64,000 nt of DNA from a virus. This document shows positions 14,731 to 44,528 of the stretch, piece after piece. The notes under the pieces are model-generated. The model was not told where the DNA came from. It did no database searches and saw only the letters and a program-made list of their open reading frames with translations. Numbering within the stretch: the stretch's first letter is position 1; every line of letters starts with the position of its first letter. The stretch lies in the UHGV virus genome UHGV-1353844; one strand, given 5' to 3'. A program made the position numbers and the translations under genes.

Positions 14731-15246
14731 TTACCCCCGGTGCAAGAAAATACGGTTAGTGTTTTCGAATTTCGGTTCTGTCCACTCTAGTTCCCAGTAA
14801 GCCTGGTTAATATCGCGAGACGTAAGTTTCAGATTCGAAACATTGGGGATATCGCACATTTGAAGTAAACGGATAATCGTCACCAGCTCTTTACGAGGTC
14901 GGTCCCAGATAACCTCCAGATATTCTTTTAAACGTTCTGGATAAGCGACAGGACGAATATAGACCATACCCGACGGATACTCAATCGCTGAAGGTGTTTT
15001 AGGGACTAACCAAACCCAGTCTTTTAATACTGGGCCAGGATGATAATTCGAGAGCTGGGTAAGTGCGTTGGCGACAGAACGGCAACGGAAATACATGATG
15101 TCCCAGTCTTTCTCGAAACAGTTGTGTGCGACAACGACTTTTAATGGGTCGATAGGTTTACCGTCAATCGTAGTAACACCTGGCTGATTAGCCAAGATTT
15201 GACGTTCACGTTTGGTATAAAGATTCATGTTGATTGTTACAGACAT
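14731..15246 (-). CDS. hypothetical protein
   Basis: 171-aa ORF. Confidence 0.6.
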   Translation of the reverse strand: MSVTINMNLYTKRERQILANQPGVTTIDGKPIDPLKVVVAHNCFEKDWDIMYFRCRSVANALTQLSNYHPGPVLKDWVWLVPKTPSAIEYPSGMVYIRPVAYPERLKEYLEVIWDRPRKELVTIIRLLQMCDIPNVSNLKLTSRDINQAYWELEWTEPKFENTNRIFLHRG

Positions 15247-15288
15247 TTAATGCTCCTTTAGGTAAATAGTGGGGTAATTAAGCCTTCG

Positions 15289-16131
15289 TTATTTAAGATT
15301 CCGAACTTCTCTCATCTCGTTACAAAATCTATCAAACAGCTGGGCGTATTCGCCAACGTGAGCTTCTAGCTGTCCAAAAAAGTGGCGTGAAAGTCGTTCG
15401 CTGATTTCTTTTTCGTATTTCTTGAGAACGTGTTTAAAATATTCACCATCTCTCTTAATTTTCTGCGCAAGGGGTTCCAGAACTTTAAGAACCCATGGTT
15501 TGTTTGGGATCAAGAGATTCAGGTTACCTTCAAGATATTTGCTTTGATAAATTATAAATAGATGGTGTTCGTGTTCATCTTTCACTGCGCGAATAAACTC
15601 GGCAGCATCGGCCTCGCTAATATCCTCAACTGTAAATAGCAGAATATTTTCTTTCTCTATGTCATTCAATAGGTTATTTAAAAAAGCGCGATAAGTAGCA
15701 CCTTCATAGTTCACTTTAAGCACGTTGTTTTCAACCAGATAAGTGAATTTGTCGTTGTAAAAAAGGTATAATATCGAACCGATTTTACCTGCCTGTTTGG
15801 GGGTAAGTGGAATCTCGTCTGTGAAGTAAGCGACGTCTTTCGCAGTTGGCTTGTCTTTTAGCCTACAAGTCATTTGATCCGGAATTTCTGGATCTTTAGG
15901 CGTCTCAACAGCCCGTACTAAAATATCCATAACCGCACTAATGAGCTTGTTAGGGAAATCGACCTCGCCTTCTACCCAGAAAATGTTAAACGCTTCTGAT
16001 TTAACTTTATAGTAAAACGTGTACGTGTTTTGTAGCTCAGTGATTTCTTTAATTTGATCCTCAGTAGGGATAGGGGAAATTTTAAACTTGTTGATAACCT
16101 TTTCTTCTTCGGTGAGTTCGAACTGAAACAT
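15289..16131 (-). CDS. hypothetical protein with ADxFxRxV-type domain related to 10164-11330
   Basis: 280-aa ORF; EADAAEFIRAVKDEHEHH segment. Confidence 0.6.
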   Translation of the reverse strand: MFQFELTEEEKVINKFKISPIPTEDQIKEITELQNTYTFYYKVKSEAFNIFWVEGEVDFPNKLISAVMDILVRAVETPKDPEIPDQMTCRLKDKPTAKDVAYFTDEIPLTPKQAGKIGSILYLFYNDKFTYLVENNVLKVNYEGATYRAFLNNLLNDIEKENILLFTVEDISEADAAEFIRAVKDEHEHHLFIIYQSKYLEGNLNLLIPNKPWVLKVLEPLAQKIKRDGEYFKHVLKKYEKEISERLSRHFFGQLEAHVGEYAQLFDRFCNEMREVRNLK

Positions 16132-16142
16132 GCTACTCCTCC

Positions 16143-16586
16143 TTAAATCATTGCTGGGAATTCGAAATCAATCTTATTTACGATCCCGTAATCTTCTTTT
16201 AGTTGAATGTTTAATGTTCCCTGAAATAACTCAAGAGAACCGATGAAGAACGCTGTGTAACAGTTTCCACGAACAGAAAAGGCAAGATCCAATCCCCTTA
16301 AACAGCGTTTTAAGGTATCGTGTTCTTCTTTACTACCGAACAACTGGAAATTGATAACGGTAATCCGTTTGTTAATGATTGCCATTAACCAATCTTTAAT
16401 TCTTCTCGTGGTTATACTCTCTTTAAAATCGTTAGCTTCTGGTAGCCAGGTAACGTGAACAAACGGTGCAGCATAGTCCACGCAAACCTTTTGCTGCCAA
16501 CGTACTTGCATCAAACCACGAATACGATTTGCTAACGTTTCAGAATCACAAAGTAACATAATGCCGTTAGTAGTATTTGGTTTCAT
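16143..16586 (-). CDS. hypothetical protein
   Basis: 147-aa ORF. Confidence 0.6.
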   Translation of the reverse strand: MKPNTTNGIMLLCDSETLANRIRGLMQVRWQQKVCVDYAAPFVHVTWLPEANDFKESITTRRIKDWLMAIINKRITVINFQLFGSKEEHDTLKRCLRGLDLAFSVRGNCYTAFFIGSLELFQGTLNIQLKEDYGIVNKIDFEFPAMI

Positions 16587-16736
16587 AATTGTCCCTCTTT
16601 CTTAACGTAGTCTTCAACTAATTTATCAAACACGATTTTTTATCTTCACCCAATTCACCAGAACAGATAATACGGGTGATAGAACTAATCCTCCTTTCGG
16701 CTATAACTAATAGAGCGAATGTAAATTTCGCTCTCC

Positions 16737-16756
16737 CCTAGGTAATATATATCTGA
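16737..16756 (-). promoter_or_regulatory. candidate phage promoter motif (TCAGATATATATTACCTAGG) downstream of terminator, upstream of hairpin 16712-16734
   Basis: conserved motif. Confidence 0.45.
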
Positions 16757-16802
16757 GAAAAAATAAAAAAGAAAGGTAGTAGGGGCTTAGCCCCTACTAC
16801 CT
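16757..16802 (-). terminator. rho-independent terminator
   Basis: ggtagtagggg-ctta-gcccctactacc hairpin preceded by A-run on plus strand. Confidence 0.65.
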
Positions 16803-16960
16803 AATATTTATTTCATTCCGTTCTGAGAAAGCGTTGTCCCTGTAAGATGCGTAATAACGATCTTAACAGGCAATAGACGCTAACACCACCACACCAGTGA
16901 TGTCTTCTGAAAGTGTCGGTAGCTCGCGAATGCGTACCTTTCCTACCAGTTCAGCCACTA

Positions 16961-17473
16961 TTAACCACCAAAGGTTAAGACGCGATTATCTGCGGTAACG
17001 ATTAAATCGTTGTCTTTTACTACAGCGGCTTCTTCGTCGTTACCGAAAACCAGAACGGAGAATTGGCCTTTATAACCTAACGAGTTGGGTGAAACCTGTA
17101 ACGTTACAGCGTCTTTCCCTACGGTAAATGATTCGTCGGTAAGATCGTCGGGTTGTAAATTACAACCGCAAGCCGCGTTAATTCCGTCGATTAGATCGTG
17201 TGCGGTAAAACCATTACCGGAAACCTTTACCAGAATAGGTTGCTGGTTTAACCACCGCTCTGCGGTTAAACGGTTGTAATAGATTTGTAACGTTCTGTTA
17301 CCAGGACGTTTTATCTTTACAACAGCAGTGGTGTCACGATCCATTTCGTTACTGGTCTTTACGTCGCTGACTTCAACCTCGTTCTCTTGCAGGTCGAGCT
17401 GGAGGTCATGGTTAACCAGTGAAATAACCATGTTAAGTGAAGTTAACGACAAATCAGGCGTGAATTGTTCCAC
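16961..17473 (-). CDS. paralog-family protein (PDLSLTS N-terminus, YYNRL motif); GTG start
   Basis: 170-aa ORF, SD AGGAGG 8 nt upstream of GTG; paralog of 26897-27460. Confidence 0.6.
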   Translation of the reverse strand: MEQFTPDLSLTSLNMVISLVNHDLQLDLQENEVEVSDVKTSNEMDRDTTAVVKIKRPGNRTLQIYYNRLTAERWLNQQPILVKVSGNGFTAHDLIDGINAACGCNLQPDDLTDESFTVGKDAVTLQVSPNSLGYKGQFSVLVFGNDEEAAVVKDNDLIVTADNRVLTFGG

Positions 17474-17572
17474 GTATGGTTACCTCCTATGATTGGGGAG
17501 ACATAAAATGTTGGCTAAAAACATTTCACCCCCCCCCCGATTACGTTTTCAAGCACATTCGCTTGAAAATTA

Positions 17573-18076
17573 TTAACTAATCTTCAAATCTCTTAATGTG
17601 CCGGTTGATTTCATCACGTTTTGGAAAGCAGTGCTAATGTTAGAGGTCCAGTAATAATGTTGACCATTAATAACCTGCTGATAGGCTACCGTACAAGTGT
17701 TGCCGCCTAGATTTACGGTGATGTTAGAAGCTCTCCCACCTTGTAAATAGACCGCTAAACTTGGTTTTGCATCAGCAGCCAATGTGATCAATAGTAGTTG
17801 GATACCAATAAGTGTGCCTACGCCGCAGCTACCAGGATTCTGAATAGTCCCTTTATTTTTCTGCGCTAACGGCCAGTTTGGTCCCACCGCACCCCAAAAT
17901 TTAGCCATTGAATCGCTATATGCAGCAGTTGCGATTTTACAGCCAAGAGATCGGCCCACCATTTGACTCATCATAAAAGGTCTACCCAATCCTAATTTAC
18001 TACCAGCAGCACTCATCCATTGTTCGCCCGTTTCGTTCTTGGCCGAAGAACCGACCCATCCAGATGCTACCCCCAT
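17573..18076 (-). CDS. fibre-associated protein sharing N-terminal ~45 aa with the Gly-rich protein (possible tip adhesin variant)
   Basis: GWVGSSAKNETGEQWMS N-terminus paralogous to 18137-18919. Confidence 0.55.
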   Translation of the reverse strand: MGVASGWVGSSAKNETGEQWMSAAGSKLGLGRPFMMSQMVGRSLGCKIATAAYSDSMAKFWGAVGPNWPLAQKNKGTIQNPGSCGVGTLIGIQLLLITLAADAKPSLAVYLQGGRASNITVNLGGNTCTVAYQQVINGQHYYWTSNISTAFQNVMKSTGTLRDLKIS

Positions 18077-39342: not shown

Positions 39343-39810
39343 TTAGATTTCCTTTATCATTTCCCTGCATTCGGTACGGAATCCCATTTTCTCATACAAG
39401 GAGATAGCTTTAACGTTGTTGTCTAACACATCCAGACTCATCCAACCACAACCTTTGGACTTTCCGTATTCACGGACTTTGTCCATAAGCGCACGCCCTA
39501 CCCCTTGAGAACGTGCTTCAGGAACCACATAGTAATTCCCGATGTAAACGAACGTGTCTTTTGAGCAAGAACCCAATGAGAACGTCATAAAGCCCAGAAG
39601 CTGTTCGTTATCATCCACCGCACACGCACAGAGATAATCTTGAGGCCAAATCTCTTCTAAACGTTCGATGGGGTTGAACGTGTCACGTCCAGTTAACTGA
39701 CTAATACGCACTTTCTCTTCTGCGAACAACATGTTGTGCAGTTTGAGTACCTGGTCGCCGTATAACTTTCCGTATTTACTGTCGGGTTTGAGAATAATAG
39801 TAATACGCAT
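39343..39810 (-). CDS. GNAT family N-acetyltransferase
   Basis: QGVGRALMDKVREYGKSKGC motif. Confidence 0.65.
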   Translation of the reverse strand: MRITIILKPDSKYGKLYGDQVLKLHNMLFAEEKVRISQLTGRDTFNPIERLEEIWPQDYLCACAVDDNEQLLGFMTFSLGSCSKDTFVYIGNYYVVPEARSQGVGRALMDKVREYGKSKGCGWMSLDVLDNNVKAISLYEKMGFRTECREMIKEI

Positions 39811-40943
39811 TATTTAACCTCAATCAGCGACAACCTGCACCATTCCAGTAAGCCTTCCGCAACACGCACTAACGAGGTAGTAAACGCATCTTCTAAACGC
39901 AGTGCGTTCTTATACCGAACGGTAGCATCGCGTAACTCACGACCGTCTAACGACTTCAGCTCTTTTTTCATTCGCTGAACTTCATCGTAAATACCGGTAT
40001 AACCAACGCTACGTCGCTTCGTACCACGCTGACGTAAAGCTCGGATAATTTTTTCAACGGCTTCGAGAGCTGAACCGATTTCGTGTAAGTTCAGAGATTT
40101 GATTGTGTGGCCAAAATCACCATCACGGGCAATCGCCCACTCAATCTTACCGTTGTCGTGTTCAACGACCACCACGTTACCTGGCCACGGATACGCTTTC
40201 ACCGTTTTAAACGGATCGATAATACCGAACAACCCTGCACTACGTTTAATCGCCCAGTTCGTTGAGCGGCCTACTTTCTCCAAGCCACTCTCAGTAACTT
40301 TCTTGCTCTTACCGATAATGGTGCGCGTTTTAACGGTATACTCGTTGACCATCGCATCCATTGCGTTCAGGTTCTTACTGAACTCAATACACGCTTTTAC
40401 GTTAGGTTTGTCTTCTAAACAAACTTTGGTCGTCCAGCTTCCCGTGTCGCAGTCAACCGGTTTTAAGGTGTCTTTGTCACCGATTAAACTTAGACGAGCA
40501 TTTAACTTTTGCAGTTTGCGCTCTAAGGTCGTTGCTTTAGACGTCGCTTCTTTTAATTCCTTAATGACTTCTTTACCCGCAACTTCGGCAAAATCCACAA
40601 AACGTAAAGCAAGTTGTTTGGAATGTTTACCTGCGAAATTCGCTGATGCTTTTGCACCTGCACTGGCAGCACGCCCTGCTACCCGACTTACGCCACGAAC
40701 CGCACGTCCGGTGAGTCGTGCAGCCGCTTTGCCTATCCCTTTATCAGGTTCCGTGTCTGACAAAAACTGCGCACGGTGCATCATGGCCGCAGACTCTGAC
40801 GCAACAACCACATCATCCAAAAGCCAACGTTTACGGATAGCAACGATAGCCGGATAATTGTCTTTTACTCCAATGGATTCTAACGCTACGAGTCGGTCGT
40901 AATCGTCACAAAGCACTTCTAAGTCGCTATCTAACGTTGACAT
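39810..40943 (-). CDS. hypothetical protein, tandem paralog of 40950-41834
   Basis: shared C-terminal block AYPxxGNVxVV...YKNxxxLEDAxTTxLxRVAxGLLxW; antisense ORF 40099-40857 is a shadow. Confidence 0.6.
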   Translation of the reverse strand: MSTLDSDLEVLCDDYDRLVALESIGVKDNYPAIVAIRKRWLLDDVVVASESAAMMHRAQFLSDTEPDKGIGKAAARLTGRAVRGVSRVAGRAASAGAKASANFAGKHSKQLALRFVDFAEVAGKEVIKELKEATSKATTLERKLQKLNARLSLIGDKDTLKPVDCDTGSWTTKVCLEDKPNVKACIEFSKNLNAMDAMVNEYTVKTRTIIGKSKKVTESGLEKVGRSTNWAIKRSAGLFGIIDPFKTVKAYPWPGNVVVVEHDNGKIEWAIARDGDFGHTIKSLNLHEIGSALEAVEKIIRALRQRGTKRRSVGYTGIYDEVQRMKKELKSLDGRELRDATVRYKNALRLEDAFTTSLVRVAEGLLEWCRLSLIEVK

Positions 40944-40949
40944 GATAAT

Positions 40950-41834
40950 TTACTCGTTTGCTTTGATCGTCGCTTTCACCCAGGCTAACAACCCATCCGC
41001 TACTCGGTCGAGTGCAGTGGTCACCGCGTCTTCCAACTTAATAACGTTTTTGTAAGCGCGTTTAACCTCGGAGATTTCATCCCGATCGACTTTGTACATT
41101 TTATCTTTAATCTTTTCAGCTTCTTGGTAAATACCGCTGTAGCCAAAAAGTCCGTTTTTCGCGTTGCGGGATTCCATGATGTCTGCAATCTTACGCACCG
41201 CTTTTAATGCCTGGTGACATTCACGCTCGGTGAGTGCGGCAATAGTGTCTTTATACATCCCGCCGTTACCGATACCGAACGTAGTCTTACTTTTACCCAG
41301 TTCACCCTGCGTAACGACGTAGACGTTTCCTGCTAACGGATACGCAGTAACTTCCGTGCCCATCAAATTAGGGATATACCCCATCGCACGATGAATCGCT
41401 GAACTACTGGAGTAGCTCAATTCTTTTAACATCCCGTCTTCAACTTTACGGTGAACTTCTTTAGGACCGATAGCCATCGGGTTAGTCACAACCAGGAATT
41501 TCTTCGCAGCCGCCTCGAACCCGTTTACGGAATCGACTAACTTAAGACATTCTTTTAAATCAGGGACGTCTTCGTAACACACACGCGCACACCAGGTGCC
41601 CGCAGGAACCACTTTGGCAGAAAACGTTTTGACGTCTTTCAACCGATCTTCTAATCGGTCAGCGTCTTCTTTCATCGTTTTCATTTTGCCGGTGACGACA
41701 CGCTTAGCATCGTGTAATCGGTTGTTCACTAAACCGATAATTTCCAAATAGACCTGGTGGCCATACGAGGCAGAAGAGTCGGTGCGATCGCGAGACTCCT
41801 GTCCCACCTGTTGGCCAATCCAACTACGACGCAT
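40950..41834 (-). CDS. hypothetical protein, tandem paralog of 39810-40943
   Basis: 294-aa ORF. Confidence 0.6.
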   Translation of the reverse strand: MRRSWIGQQVGQESRDRTDSSASYGHQVYLEIIGLVNNRLHDAKRVVTGKMKTMKEDADRLEDRLKDVKTFSAKVVPAGTWCARVCYEDVPDLKECLKLVDSVNGFEAAAKKFLVVTNPMAIGPKEVHRKVEDGMLKELSYSSSSAIHRAMGYIPNLMGTEVTAYPLAGNVYVVTQGELGKSKTTFGIGNGGMYKDTIAALTERECHQALKAVRKIADIMESRNAKNGLFGYSGIYQEAEKIKDKMYKVDRDEISEVKRAYKNVIKLEDAVTTALDRVADGLLAWVKATIKANE

Positions 41835-41870
41835 ATCAAGATTTCCTTTGTAAAACGGTTAAAGTCAAGT

Positions 41871-42437
41871 TCATAATAAACGAAGACTTTCCAACCACTT
41901 ATCCCGATCGGCGGTATGATAATAACAAGGAACATCGATTGACTTCGCGTATTTTACACCCATTGCGGTGCCACCTTTTGCGTTCCCGTGTTTGTCGTGG
42001 TCGCTAAAGTAATATACTGCGTCTACCGGTTCGTCTAAGCGGTCACCTGCGATGATGTTCAGATTACGACCGTGTAACGCCCAGGCAATCGGTGAGAGAT
42101 TATCTGGGTTTGGGTGGAGTGAAGCAACAACTGCTCGGTACTGCACGTCTTGTGGGATATAACGAAACTCTACCTTAGGGTGTATTTTCCCTAACCACAT
42201 TTTCTTTTCATCCGGCAGGTAACAAACGCTCTTAACGTCCTCGGTGCGTGCTAACATGAACTGAAGTTGGTCTGGGCCTTTATAACACCCTCCAGAACGG
42301 GTGGTAATCGTGTAGCCTTTCTTTCGTAAGATTCGAAACCCTTCCCGTAACGTGTCTAACATTTCCTGCATAACGTCTTCCGGTGTTTCTCGAGACCCGA
42401 TGATCGCGATTTTGTATTCTTTCATGGTCACCTCCAT
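41871..42437 (-). CDS. SLOG/DprA-like Rossmann-fold protein (tentative)
   Basis: KIAIIGSRE N-terminal motif and GTAMGVKYAKSIDVP. Confidence 0.4.
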   Translation of the reverse strand: MEVTMKEYKIAIIGSRETPEDVMQEMLDTLREGFRILRKKGYTITTRSGGCYKGPDQLQFMLARTEDVKSVCYLPDEKKMWLGKIHPKVEFRYIPQDVQYRAVVASLHPNPDNLSPIAWALHGRNLNIIAGDRLDEPVDAVYYFSDHDKHGNAKGGTAMGVKYAKSIDVPCYYHTADRDKWLESLRLL

Positions 42438-44051: not shown

Positions 44052-44528
44052 TTAATAAATTTTATCCGCAACAGAGAGAAAGATGGGCGTGTTTTCGATA
44101 AAATCCACCAAATATCCTTCTTCCGGCGGGGCGTATGACGAAACAACGTTACCGTTCGTCATACGAAAATACCGACGAGAGTCGCTGGCGATATACCAAC
44201 GGTCAATCTGGTAGCCTTTTTTCGAAAAGAAACACAGGCCGTCAATGTTCGAAGGGTGGACACGACACGTCACCATTTGACGATCGGAATTCAGTTGAAC
44301 GTACTGCAATAAGAACGAACCCACACCGAAACGTCGAGAACCTTCTGCTACCACCAGATAGATAAGATTGCCCGGTTCCCAAATCGCGATACCGTGCGTA
44401 ATGTCGTCTTCTATCGCTAACGTAATACGAACAGGTGTTTCGCGTATCGAGTTTAAGTCCTTGATGTATTCGCGTAATTGTGGAAATTTAGCGGAGATTT
44501 TGTCTTCAGTAATATCTAACTGCTGCAT
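44052..44528 (-). CDS. hypothetical protein
   Basis: 158-aa ORF. Confidence 0.55.
   Translation of the reverse strand: MQQLDITEDKISAKFPQLREYIKDLNSIRETPVRITLAIEDDITHGIAIWEPGNLIYLVVAEGSRRFGVGSFLLQYVQLNSDRQMVTCRVHPSNIDGLCFFSKKGYQIDRWYIASDSRRYFRMTNGNVVSSYAPPEEGYLVDFIENTPIFLSVADKIY

Follow-up and report, generated by a model that had tools for sequence, protein, structure and literature searches.

The window, a 64,000-nt stretch of the virus genome UHGV-1353844, carries two adjacent genes on its minus strand, A (377 aa) and B (294 aa), with the coordinates and lengths reported in the initial annotation. The two genes are separated by 6 nt. An in-frame stop codon lies eight codons upstream of the B ATG, so B has no longer reading frame. 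The features of the locus are as follows.

39343..39810, minus strand: GNAT acetyltransferase gene, neighbor of A (an identical gene of related contigs matches PF00583)
39810..40943, minus strand: gene A (ORF A), encoding a 377-aa putative internal head protein of the PF12699 family, gp94 subfamily
39825..40544, minus strand: shared helix-rich core of A, residues 134-373 (BLASTP alignment)
39840..40196, minus strand: C-terminal block of the initial annotation, A250-368, inside the A core
40563..40577, minus strand: speculative third protease site of A, A-G-K-E126↓V
40629..40760, minus strand: basic Ala/Gly/Lys/Arg-rich segment of A, ~residues 62-105 (a gap in B-type proteins in the alignment)
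40791..40805, minus strand: candidate protease site 2 of A, V47-A48-S49-E50↓S51
40794..40943, minus strand: leader of A, residues 1-50, a presumed propeptide or capsid-targeting-like segment, family-wide in the alignment
40875..40889, minus strand: candidate protease site 1 of A, V19-A20-L21-E22↓S23
40950..41834, minus strand: gene B (ORF B), encoding a 294-aa paralog of A without most of the leader and without the basic segment
40965..41693, minus strand: shared helix-rich core of B, residues 48-290 (BLASTP alignment)
41793..41807, minus strand: the only retained candidate protease site of B, V10-G11-Q12-E13↓S14, aligning with site 2 of A
41843..41848, minus strand: AAGGAA ribosome-binding site of B, 8 nt upstream of its ATG (read from the sequence)
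41871..42437, minus strand: DprA-like gene directly upstream of B (58% identity to SPN3US_0092, E = 2e-79)

The pair belongs to an enterobacterial jumbo phage of the SPN3US type, uncultured and ~225 kb in genome size. A megablast search with the locus gave no match in 50,697 phage records, where its relatives are found at the protein level only; the phage is not among the sequenced isolates. The GNAT ATG and the A stop codon overlap by 1 nt (TAATG), and the position of the GNAT gene is syntenic, being occupied by SPN3US gp95, phiEaH2 gp020, and Machina gp107; on the other side of the pair, the SPN3US_0092 counterpart of the DprA-like gene is labeled in RefSeq as a DprA-like DNA recombination-mediator protein.

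A and B share 34% identity over 248 aligned positions (BLASTP, E = 1e-37), and each, as a phmmer query against all 257 ORFs of the window, has the other as its sole match (E ~3e-36). These alignments identify the two as tandem paralogs that evidently arose by duplication, as first proposed. The C-terminal motifs quoted in support of that proposal are all found in both proteins: AYPWPGNVVVV of A has the counterpart AYPLAGNVYVV in B, GYTGIYDE in A corresponds to GYSGIYQE in B, and YKN..LEDA.TT.L.RVA.GLL.W is present in both. The shared C-terminal region of ~110 aa described in the initial annotation is real (42% identity over the A250-368 block) but is only part of the homology; identity continues upstream of the block at 31.5%, reaching about A134/B48, so that the entire ~245-aa core is homologous and the shared length is more than twice that originally given. 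Searches of the window with phmmer and with the canonical PF12699 profile detected no A/B paralog beyond these two and no gp53/54-type major internal protein.

Structure prediction agrees with paralogy, as AF2 models of A and B (pTM 0.70 and 0.75) have an identical order of elements; the core of A is predicted to consist of a long helix, a 4-strand beta-meander, and three C-terminal helices. A Foldseek search of the predicted structures in BFVD with the B model returned 61 matches at E <= 1e-3, and among the matches listed all named ones are from phiKZ-like jumbo phages and are labeled virion or internal head protein. The models thus suggest a helix-rich fold common to A, B, and other jumbo-phage internal head proteins. 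Against the PDB, the A sequence found no chain below E = 0.37 and the A model found none below E = 1 (Foldseek).

PHROG 2497 (internal head protein) matches A over residues 1-373 (5e-74) and B over residues 8-294 (1.6e-48). The PF12699 score of A (32.6 bits) is above the Pfam gathering cut-off of 27 bits and that of B (24.5 bits) is just below it; among orthologs, the scores are 27.6 for Machina gp106, 20.5 for SPN3US gp94, and 19.9 for phiEaH2 gp018. T4 internal proteins do not occur among the Pfam or PHROG results for A and B. Connection to the canonical PF12699 proteins rests on profile-profile comparison and bridging sequences: the A/B-family profile aligns by hhalign with a set comprising phiKZ gp92-96/162/163 and SPN3US gp53/54 (probability 90.8%, E = 1.2e-6) over 228 columns that include the invariant PGN motif, and it reaches canonical PF12699 proteins, which score 137-190 bits on Pfam, at whole-library E-values of 1e-10 to 1e-4. 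Direct HMM searches of the phiKZ and SPN3US paralogs with the A/B profile stayed at noise (<10 bits), so the link is a remote one. Profile evidence places A and B in the described family of phiKZ-like internal head proteins, apparently as a divergent, SPN3US gp94-type subfamily (PHROG 2497) of PF12699; since that family is already described, the pair is an ordinary addition to a known kind. Orthologs are present in 62 phage records, and the gp94-type branch is small, with ~18 clusters at 50% identity among 1.84 billion proteins. It is a third, very divergent PF12699 branch in SPN3US-like phages, uncounted in the SPN3US literature, which leaves gp94 out of the PF12699 "paralog family A."

The closest characterized relative is SPN3US gp94 (SPN3US_0094, YP_009153388, "internal head protein"), an ortholog of A with 59% identity over the full 377 aa, an A-like leader with VALE and VARE motifs, and the same locus order (DprA-like gene, internal protein gene, GNAT gene, and, further on, thymidylate kinase). 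Mass spectrometry of virions and heads gave gp94 peptide coverage that lies C-terminal to the gp245-motif residues, a hint of processing by gp245 (PMC10052503); gp94 does not appear in an excerpt of the published table of confirmed protease substrates, and one supplementary file of the same paper makes no mention of its copy number. For comparison, SPN3US gp53 and gp54 are estimated at >600 copies per virion. The pair itself recurs in a related phage: Erwinia phage phiEaH2 has an equivalent tandem B-then-A pair, gp018/gp019, at the equivalent locus and followed by a GNAT gene, with gp018 the ortholog of B (53% identity) and gp019 sharing 47% identity with A. Both are annotated "internal head protein" in RefSeq. 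Stratton and Wellington are further cultured phages that have both genes. Given the PF12699 and PHROG 2497 matches, the gp94 virion peptides (PMC10052503), and the annotated phiEaH2 pair, calling A and B proteins of unknown function makes them seem more novel than they are.

The canonical paralogs compared (phiKZ gp92-97, gp162, and gp163; SPN3US gp53 and gp54; Goslar gp53-58) resemble A and B in their remote but significant homology, helix-rich predicted fold, and tandem arrangement, and phiKZ gp162/gp163 are likewise a pair apart from the main inner-body operon. Canonical proteins carry an (S/A)-x-E protease motif in the first ~20 residues, and a comparable motif is found in the A and B N-termini. 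The differences are that A and B are shorter, very divergent in direct HMM comparison, and encoded at a different locus. Canonical PF12699 proteins are virion-internal, proteolysed, and often injected, a behavior that A and B may share.

A begins with a leader of ~50 aa that is common to the family and contains two V-A-x-E↓S motifs; its first 22 residues have a net charge of -6. Site 1 is conserved as [VLC]ALE[SGA] in 13 of 13 aligned leader-bearing sequences and resembles phiKZ gp93 SLE-13↓S; at site 2, E50 is kept in at least 90% of sequences, and the V-[AG]-x-E-S pattern is family-wide. In SPN3US the motif of the gp245 protease is AXE, P4 being V and P1' being S (PMC10052503), and the family motifs VALE↓S and V[AG]xE↓S both fit it. 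Most A-types have A-K-E at the third site; outside the B clade, eight of the nine long-form proteins keep [AG]KE there. B-types lack this site, and in A it lies within a predicted helix (AF2). Cleavage there is speculative; it would leave a 126-aa propeptide, comparable to those of SPN3US gp53 (125 aa) and gp54 (124/137 aa). Between the leader and the core, A has the basic segment (pI 12.0 and 43% Ala+Gly for residues 66-112), and residues 44-61 and 63-104 are predicted to be disordered (pLDDT <50).

B-type proteins lack a ~45-aa portion corresponding to this basic segment. In addition, window B lacks the first ~40 leader residues, site 1 among them, whereas phiEaH2 gp018 (329 aa) retains the full leader and both cleavage motifs. 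The N-termini had been called divergent, a term that does not fit, as an A-like leader is kept in the 329-332-aa B-type orthologs of Erwinia phages and the difference comes down to the truncation of B plus the basic segment. On the alignments, truncation of the 5' end of B is particular to this lineage and absence of the basic segment is common to all B-types. The phiKZ protease motif, attributed to Thomas et al. in 2012, is reportedly S/A/G-x-E. Gly at P3 of the B site would fit that motif and is so far not observed for SPN3US gp245. Since its one candidate site has Gly in place of Ala at P3 and most of its leader is gone, window B is not readily accounted for by the packaging scheme considered below.

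In a phylogenetic tree, the B clade (100% bootstrap) is separate from the A clade (99%), which includes SPN3US gp94, and B is on a long branch; the topology points to an old duplication within the SPN3US/Erwinia jumbo-phage group, since which A and B have come to differ in architecture. B is accessory, in that its presence or absence varies among near-identical phages: L032 and L034 are without B, though their A protein is ~90% identical to window A. The L032 junction, aligned for a B deletion, has no recombination signature, and the spacer there is unrelated and includes a GC-rich hairpin. SPN3US is also without B and has an unrelated 90-aa ORF, gp93, in that slot; gp93 was considered as a remnant of B and rejected for lack of similarity (E = 41). 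Both A and B are under purifying selection (dN/dS 0.03-0.10). The B protein is 100% conserved across contigs that differ synonymously (dN = 0, dS 0.005-0.08), and its dN/dS is ~0.04 relative to ~88%-identical relatives. Specialization after duplication, as suggested in the initial annotation, is plausible, both genes being under purifying selection; B is absent from close relatives.

Virions contain PF12699 proteins in abundance, and these proteins undergo proteolysis and for the most part are injected (bioRxiv 2024.03.24.586471; bioRxiv 2026.04.21.720040), ejection having been shown for several phiKZ and Goslar members. The favored reading, with a probability of roughly 70%, is that A and B are gp94-type PF12699 internal head proteins that enter the prohead, undergo proteolytic trimming, are held inside the capsid, and are then ejected or bound to its inner surface. 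Both proteins would be built into the prohead, with the acidic N-terminal leader of A acting as a propeptide or capsid-targeting-like segment. A gp245-type prohead protease would trim A at the V-A-x-E↓S motifs (E22, E50, and perhaps E126), and the basic, helix-rich mature domain (pI ~9.5-9.8) would be kept with the DNA in the capsid, either within the internal mass that is ejected with the genome or attached to the inner capsid surface. The pair derives from an old tandem duplication, after which B shed the basic disordered segment, as seen in all B-types, and in this lineage also the initial ~40 residues of the leader, with site 1 among them. Virion location is assigned here by analogy to the ortholog SPN3US gp94, and cleavage and ejection of A and B are likewise presumptive; the SPN3US papers note that some giant-phage head proteins escape processing. 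A prohead protease gene is absent within the window, and a gp245 ortholog (81% identity) is encoded on the near-identical relative IMGVR_UViG_3300045988_078609 (224,831 bp), which also carries a pair identical to A and B.

The scheme resembles that of T4 IPI, IPII, and IPIII, which are small, basic proteins with a short, conserved N-terminal sequence that takes them into the prohead and is cut off after a Glu by the prohead protease, and which are then stored with the DNA and ejected (PMC5694885). The resemblance to A and B is one of analogy alone, as sequence and fold appear unrelated, and the leader of A (~50 aa, possibly 126 aa), whose targeting role is putative, is longer than the capsid targeting sequence of T4.

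An alternative is that A and B are minor capsid proteins that are not ejected but stay bound to the inner face of the shell, either close to the vertex-binding complex or in a cementing role, and stabilize the large capsid. There is precedent in phiKZ, in which the PF12699 protein gp162 remains in the head and is not injected (bioRxiv 2024.03.24.586471) and the N-terminal parts of gp93 and gp162 line the capsid, and a cryo-EM study of Goslar describes unassigned density beside the gp86 homolog as "reminiscent of the PF12699 fold" (bioRxiv 2026.04.21.720040). This alternative is nevertheless unlikely, as most characterized PF12699 proteins are injected and gp86 itself, a vertex-binding-complex protein of phiKZ (PDB 8y6v chain G), is of a separate Pfam family, PF25617, whose profile matches gp86 at 516 bits and has no match in A or B; hhalign of gp86 with the A/B profile gives a probability of 0.1%.

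That B is a redundant duplicate in the process of being lost, leaderless, no longer packaged, and contributing little, would account for its absence from SPN3US, L032, and L034, the missing ~40 leader residues and site 1, and the long branch, and phiKZ withstands transposon insertions in several of its PF12699 paralogs (bioRxiv 2025.11.23.690004). Decay is quite improbable, however, given the intact frame and good ribosome-binding site of B and its dN of 0 and dN/dS of ~0.04, a pattern unlike that of a decaying gene. The suggestion that the A/B similarity is due to chance or low complexity, or that the ORFs are not genuine genes, can be practically dismissed in view of the BLASTP E-value of 1e-37, the 62 phage records that contain orthologs, the purifying selection acting on A and B alike, and the confident, matching predicted folds (pTM 0.70 and 0.75).

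As gp94-type internal head proteins, A and B amount to routine annotation, the family having been known since the phiKZ proteome studies, with tandem paralogy as its recognized hallmark. What they add is comparative: a divergent gp94 branch, a presence/absence polymorphism of B, and a naturally leaderless variant. The Goslar preprint calls the biological role of PF12699 proteins a "key unsolved mystery" (bioRxiv 2026.04.21.720040), and this question of their role in nucleus-forming jumbo phages is not one that the A/B finding itself opens; since the pair is small, dispensable, and naturally variable, it could be a convenient genetic handle on that role.

Leaderless B may further be regarded, with slim odds, as a natural experiment in PF12699 capsid entry, in which B rides on A or is re-purposed outside the virion. 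B may be encapsidated by pairing with full-length A in a piggy-back heterodimer, or its function may lie elsewhere than in the virion, for instance in partnering A during assembly, in regulating A, or in concert with the GNAT acetyltransferase, which is translationally coupled; each reading, if true, would point to a propeptide-independent function of the helix-rich core. At the position of VGQES in window B, close relatives (P0007) have the canonical VAHES.

The two adjacent ORFs reported in the initial annotation, A and B, are both present on the minus strand at the same coordinates, 6 nt apart; the features of the locus in the window are:

39343..39810, minus strand: GNAT acetyltransferase gene, whose start shares one base with the A stop codon (TAATG)
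39810..40943, minus strand: gene A, 377-aa ORF
40950..41834, minus strand: gene B, 294-aa ORF
44052..44528, minus strand: 158-aa ORF, a putative acetyltransferase by its position, which matches that of the second annotated acetyltransferase of SPN3US and Machina

The ATG of B is preceded at 8 nt by an AAGGAA ribosome-binding site, and an in-frame stop 8 codons 5' of the ATG precludes a longer B. A and B align by BLASTP over 248 positions with 34% identity (E = 1e-37), which bears out their description as paralogs arising by duplication, and, of the window's 257 ORFs that are 60 aa or longer, each matches only the other. Every C-terminal motif quoted for the pair occurs in both proteins. The shared C-terminal block of ~110 aa is indeed the most conserved stretch (A250-368, 42% identity), but homology extends upstream to about A134/B48 at 31.5% identity, which brings the shared region to ~245 aa. 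A 252-aa ORF with a TTG start lies antisense and wholly inside gene A (40099..40857, plus strand); most probably this is a shadow ORF, because homology and the signature of purifying selection are confined to the frame of A.

The pair had been described as of unknown function, but it falls in a known internal head protein family, and the same B-then-A pair in phiEaH2 (gp018 and gp019) already carries the RefSeq annotation "internal head protein". Both proteins match PHROG 2497, internal head protein (A, 5e-74; B, 1.6e-48); against PF12699, the Pfam family of phiKZ-like internal head proteins, the scores are 32.6 bits for A, above the curated cut-off of 27 bits, and 24.5 bits for B, below it. 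SPN3US gp94, the A-type protein of that phage, reaches 20.5 bits, compared with 254 for gp53 and 195 for gp54; this low score is probably why gp94 was left out of PF12699 "paralog family A", which comprises gp53 and gp54 only in the SPN3US papers (PMC5694885). Against the canonical phiKZ and SPN3US paralogs, a plain HMM of 15 A- and B-type sequences scored at noise level. Three independent tests nonetheless establish the link: profile-profile comparison, exhaustive profile search and predicted structures. Profile-profile comparison with the canonical paralogs aligned 228 columns (E = 1.2e-6, probability 90.8%), spanning the protease-site region and an invariant Pro/Ala-Gly-Asn motif. When 1.84 billion representatives were searched exhaustively with the A/B profile, 41 proteins reached E <= 1e-3 and 18 of these E <= 1e-30, which marks the subfamily as a small one; among ten weaker matches scanned, five were canonical PF12699 proteins (137-190 bits). 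AlphaFold2 models of A (pLDDT 71, pTM 0.70) and B (pLDDT 74, pTM 0.75) share one layout, in which a long helix is followed by a small beta element, then a four-strand beta-meander and three C-terminal helices. A fold search with the B model gave 61 matches at E <= 1e-3 among predicted structures of viral proteins; the named matches among those listed all come from phiKZ-like jumbo phages, several being labelled virion or internal head proteins. The gp94-type proteins thus form a divergent branch within PF12699, a placement that is new.

Tandem paralogy is a recognised hallmark of PF12699 proteins, as in phiKZ gp92-97 and gp162/163, SPN3US gp53/54 and Goslar gp53-58. The phiKZ gp162/gp163 pair (522 and 395 aa; 15067..17832 of phiKZ locus L016) lies outside the main inner-body operon and resembles A/B in layout; the likeness is one of analogy, orthology not being demonstrable by HMM comparison.

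The N-termini, previously called divergent, are not simply so. A leader of ~50 aa is conserved in the family alignment (LD.D.E.L.DDYDRLVALE/S ... IRKRW ... VA.E/S, a slash marking the putative cut) and is kept in all A-types and in the Erwinia-phage B-type orthologs of 329-332 aa. The difference arises because all B-types lack a basic Ala/Gly/Lys/Arg-rich segment (about A62-105; pI 12, predicted disordered), and because B of the window has also lost the first ~40 leader residues. This truncation, likewise new, is confined to the ~225-kb enterobacterial lineage that comprises the window and its relatives from Salmonella/Shigella; the B start aligns with A residue 36, and the invariant Trp and second motif are retained. 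The leader contains these candidate prohead-protease sites:

V19-A-L-E22/S: candidate site 1 of A, a leader motif in the family alignment
V47-A-S-E50/S: candidate site 2 of A, a leader motif in the family alignment
V10-G-Q-E13/S: candidate site of B, aligned with site 2 of A

These motifs agree with the site at which gp245, the SPN3US prohead protease, has been shown by experiment to cut, A-x-E with Val favoured at P4 and Ser favoured at P1' (PMC10052503), and are comparable to the phiKZ gp93 site, cut at SLE-13/S. SPN3US gp94 may itself be a gp245 substrate, because its peptide coverage lies C-terminal to the motif-matching residues (PMC10052503). A third candidate site, [AG]-K-E126, is found only in long-form proteins and within a predicted helix; speculatively, cleavage there would release a ~126-aa propeptide, as in SPN3US gp53 and gp54. 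The 224,831-bp contig that carries an identical A/B pair also has a gene for a gp245 ortholog (81% identity), which lies outside the window.

The best-supported reading of these sequence comparisons is that A is a virion-internal head protein, as B probably is. A, and probably B, would be taken into the prohead, trimmed by the prohead protease and, as basic helix-rich proteins (pI about 9.5-9.8 for mature A, about 8.8 for B), would stay with the packaged DNA; they might then either be ejected or remain bound to the shell. Most PF12699 proteins studied are injected, phiKZ gp162 being an exception (bioRxiv 2024.03.24.586471). In the cryo-EM structure of the phiKZ capsid, the inner shell is lined by N-terminal parts of gp93 and gp162, and cleavage frees the helix-rich domains (PMC11297242). 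That A and B are capsid-lining proteins that are not ejected is the less likely reading; it is supported by an unassigned PF12699-like density that adjoins the gp86 homolog in Goslar (bioRxiv 2026.04.21.720040), but gp86 itself is of another sequence family, PF25617, and shows no similarity to A/B at profile level. Decay of B as a spare duplicate is very improbable, as it conflicts with the strong purifying selection on both genes (dN/dS 0.03-0.10, dS being saturated for more distant pairs); B has zero amino-acid changes among contigs with dS up to 0.08. For an internal head protein B without its full leader, packaging by pairing with A is one possibility, hypothetical at present.

In a neighbour-joining tree of a 264-column core, window B groups with other B-types (100% bootstrap) and window A with SPN3US gp94 and pEa_SNUABM_29 gp59 (99%), so the duplication is older than the divergence of these phage genera. 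Machina-type phages have one 388-aa gene in the B clade (96%) that nevertheless keeps the leader and basic segment, which suggests a long-form ancestor. A is closest to SPN3US and pEa_SNUABM_29 (57-60% identity, versus 47% to the phiEaH2 type), whereas for B the nearest is the phiEaH2 type (55%, versus 45% to pEa_SNUABM_29); the A and B trees thus disagree, perhaps through unequal rates or because jumbo phages have exchanged genes. Presence of B is polymorphic, which is also new: SPN3US has A only, with an unrelated 90-aa ORF in the slot of B, and the pair occurs in 5 of 15 IMG/VR loci, the other 10 having a single gene. Two ~221-225-kb contigs (L032 and L034) encode an A protein ~90% identical to that of the window and a nearly identical GNAT, yet lack B entirely, the DprA-like gene and A being 50 nt apart; B is therefore accessory even in close relatives. 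The spacer (3076..3125 in L032) is unrelated sequence that includes a terminator-like element, a GC-rich hairpin with T's after it (GGGCGGG-CTTCT-CCCCGC-TTT).

No near-identical DNA was found in 50,697 phage records, but protein-level comparison clearly places the phage among SPN3US-like jumbo phages. SPN3US gp94 (SPN3US_0094) is 59% identical to A across its full length, within the same gene order (DprA-like gene, internal head protein gene, GNAT acetyltransferase, and thymidylate kinase farther along), and phiEaH2 gp018 is 53% identical to B. The B-then-A pair recurs, as the initial annotation proposed checking, in phiEaH2 and in 222-227-kb metagenomic contigs bearing identical copies of B, always with A and the GNAT gene next. 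A GNAT gene also follows the internal head protein gene in SPN3US (gp95), phiEaH2 (gp020) and Machina (gp107), a conserved and apparently translationally coupled pairing; in SPN3US and Machina the second annotated acetyltransferase lies a few genes upstream.

Relatives with ~88% amino-acid identity at A/B occur on 100-226-kb contigs of Salmonella and Shigella isolate assemblies (GCA_007525025.1, GCA_042601545.1 and GCA_014613015.1), in which the proteins carry the label Salmonella enterica or Shigella flexneri. Such contigs suggest that these phages persist in a carrier state or as pseudolysogens, or else are contaminants; they also indicate that the host is enterobacterial. In Salmonella phages SPFM5, 7, 9, 12, 15 and 20, the deposited gp94 homologs (P0027-P0031) are block-scrambled, with segments of the normal protein, ~20 aa each, in reversed order before a common 'HIATTTIL' tail, which looks like an annotation or deposition artefact.
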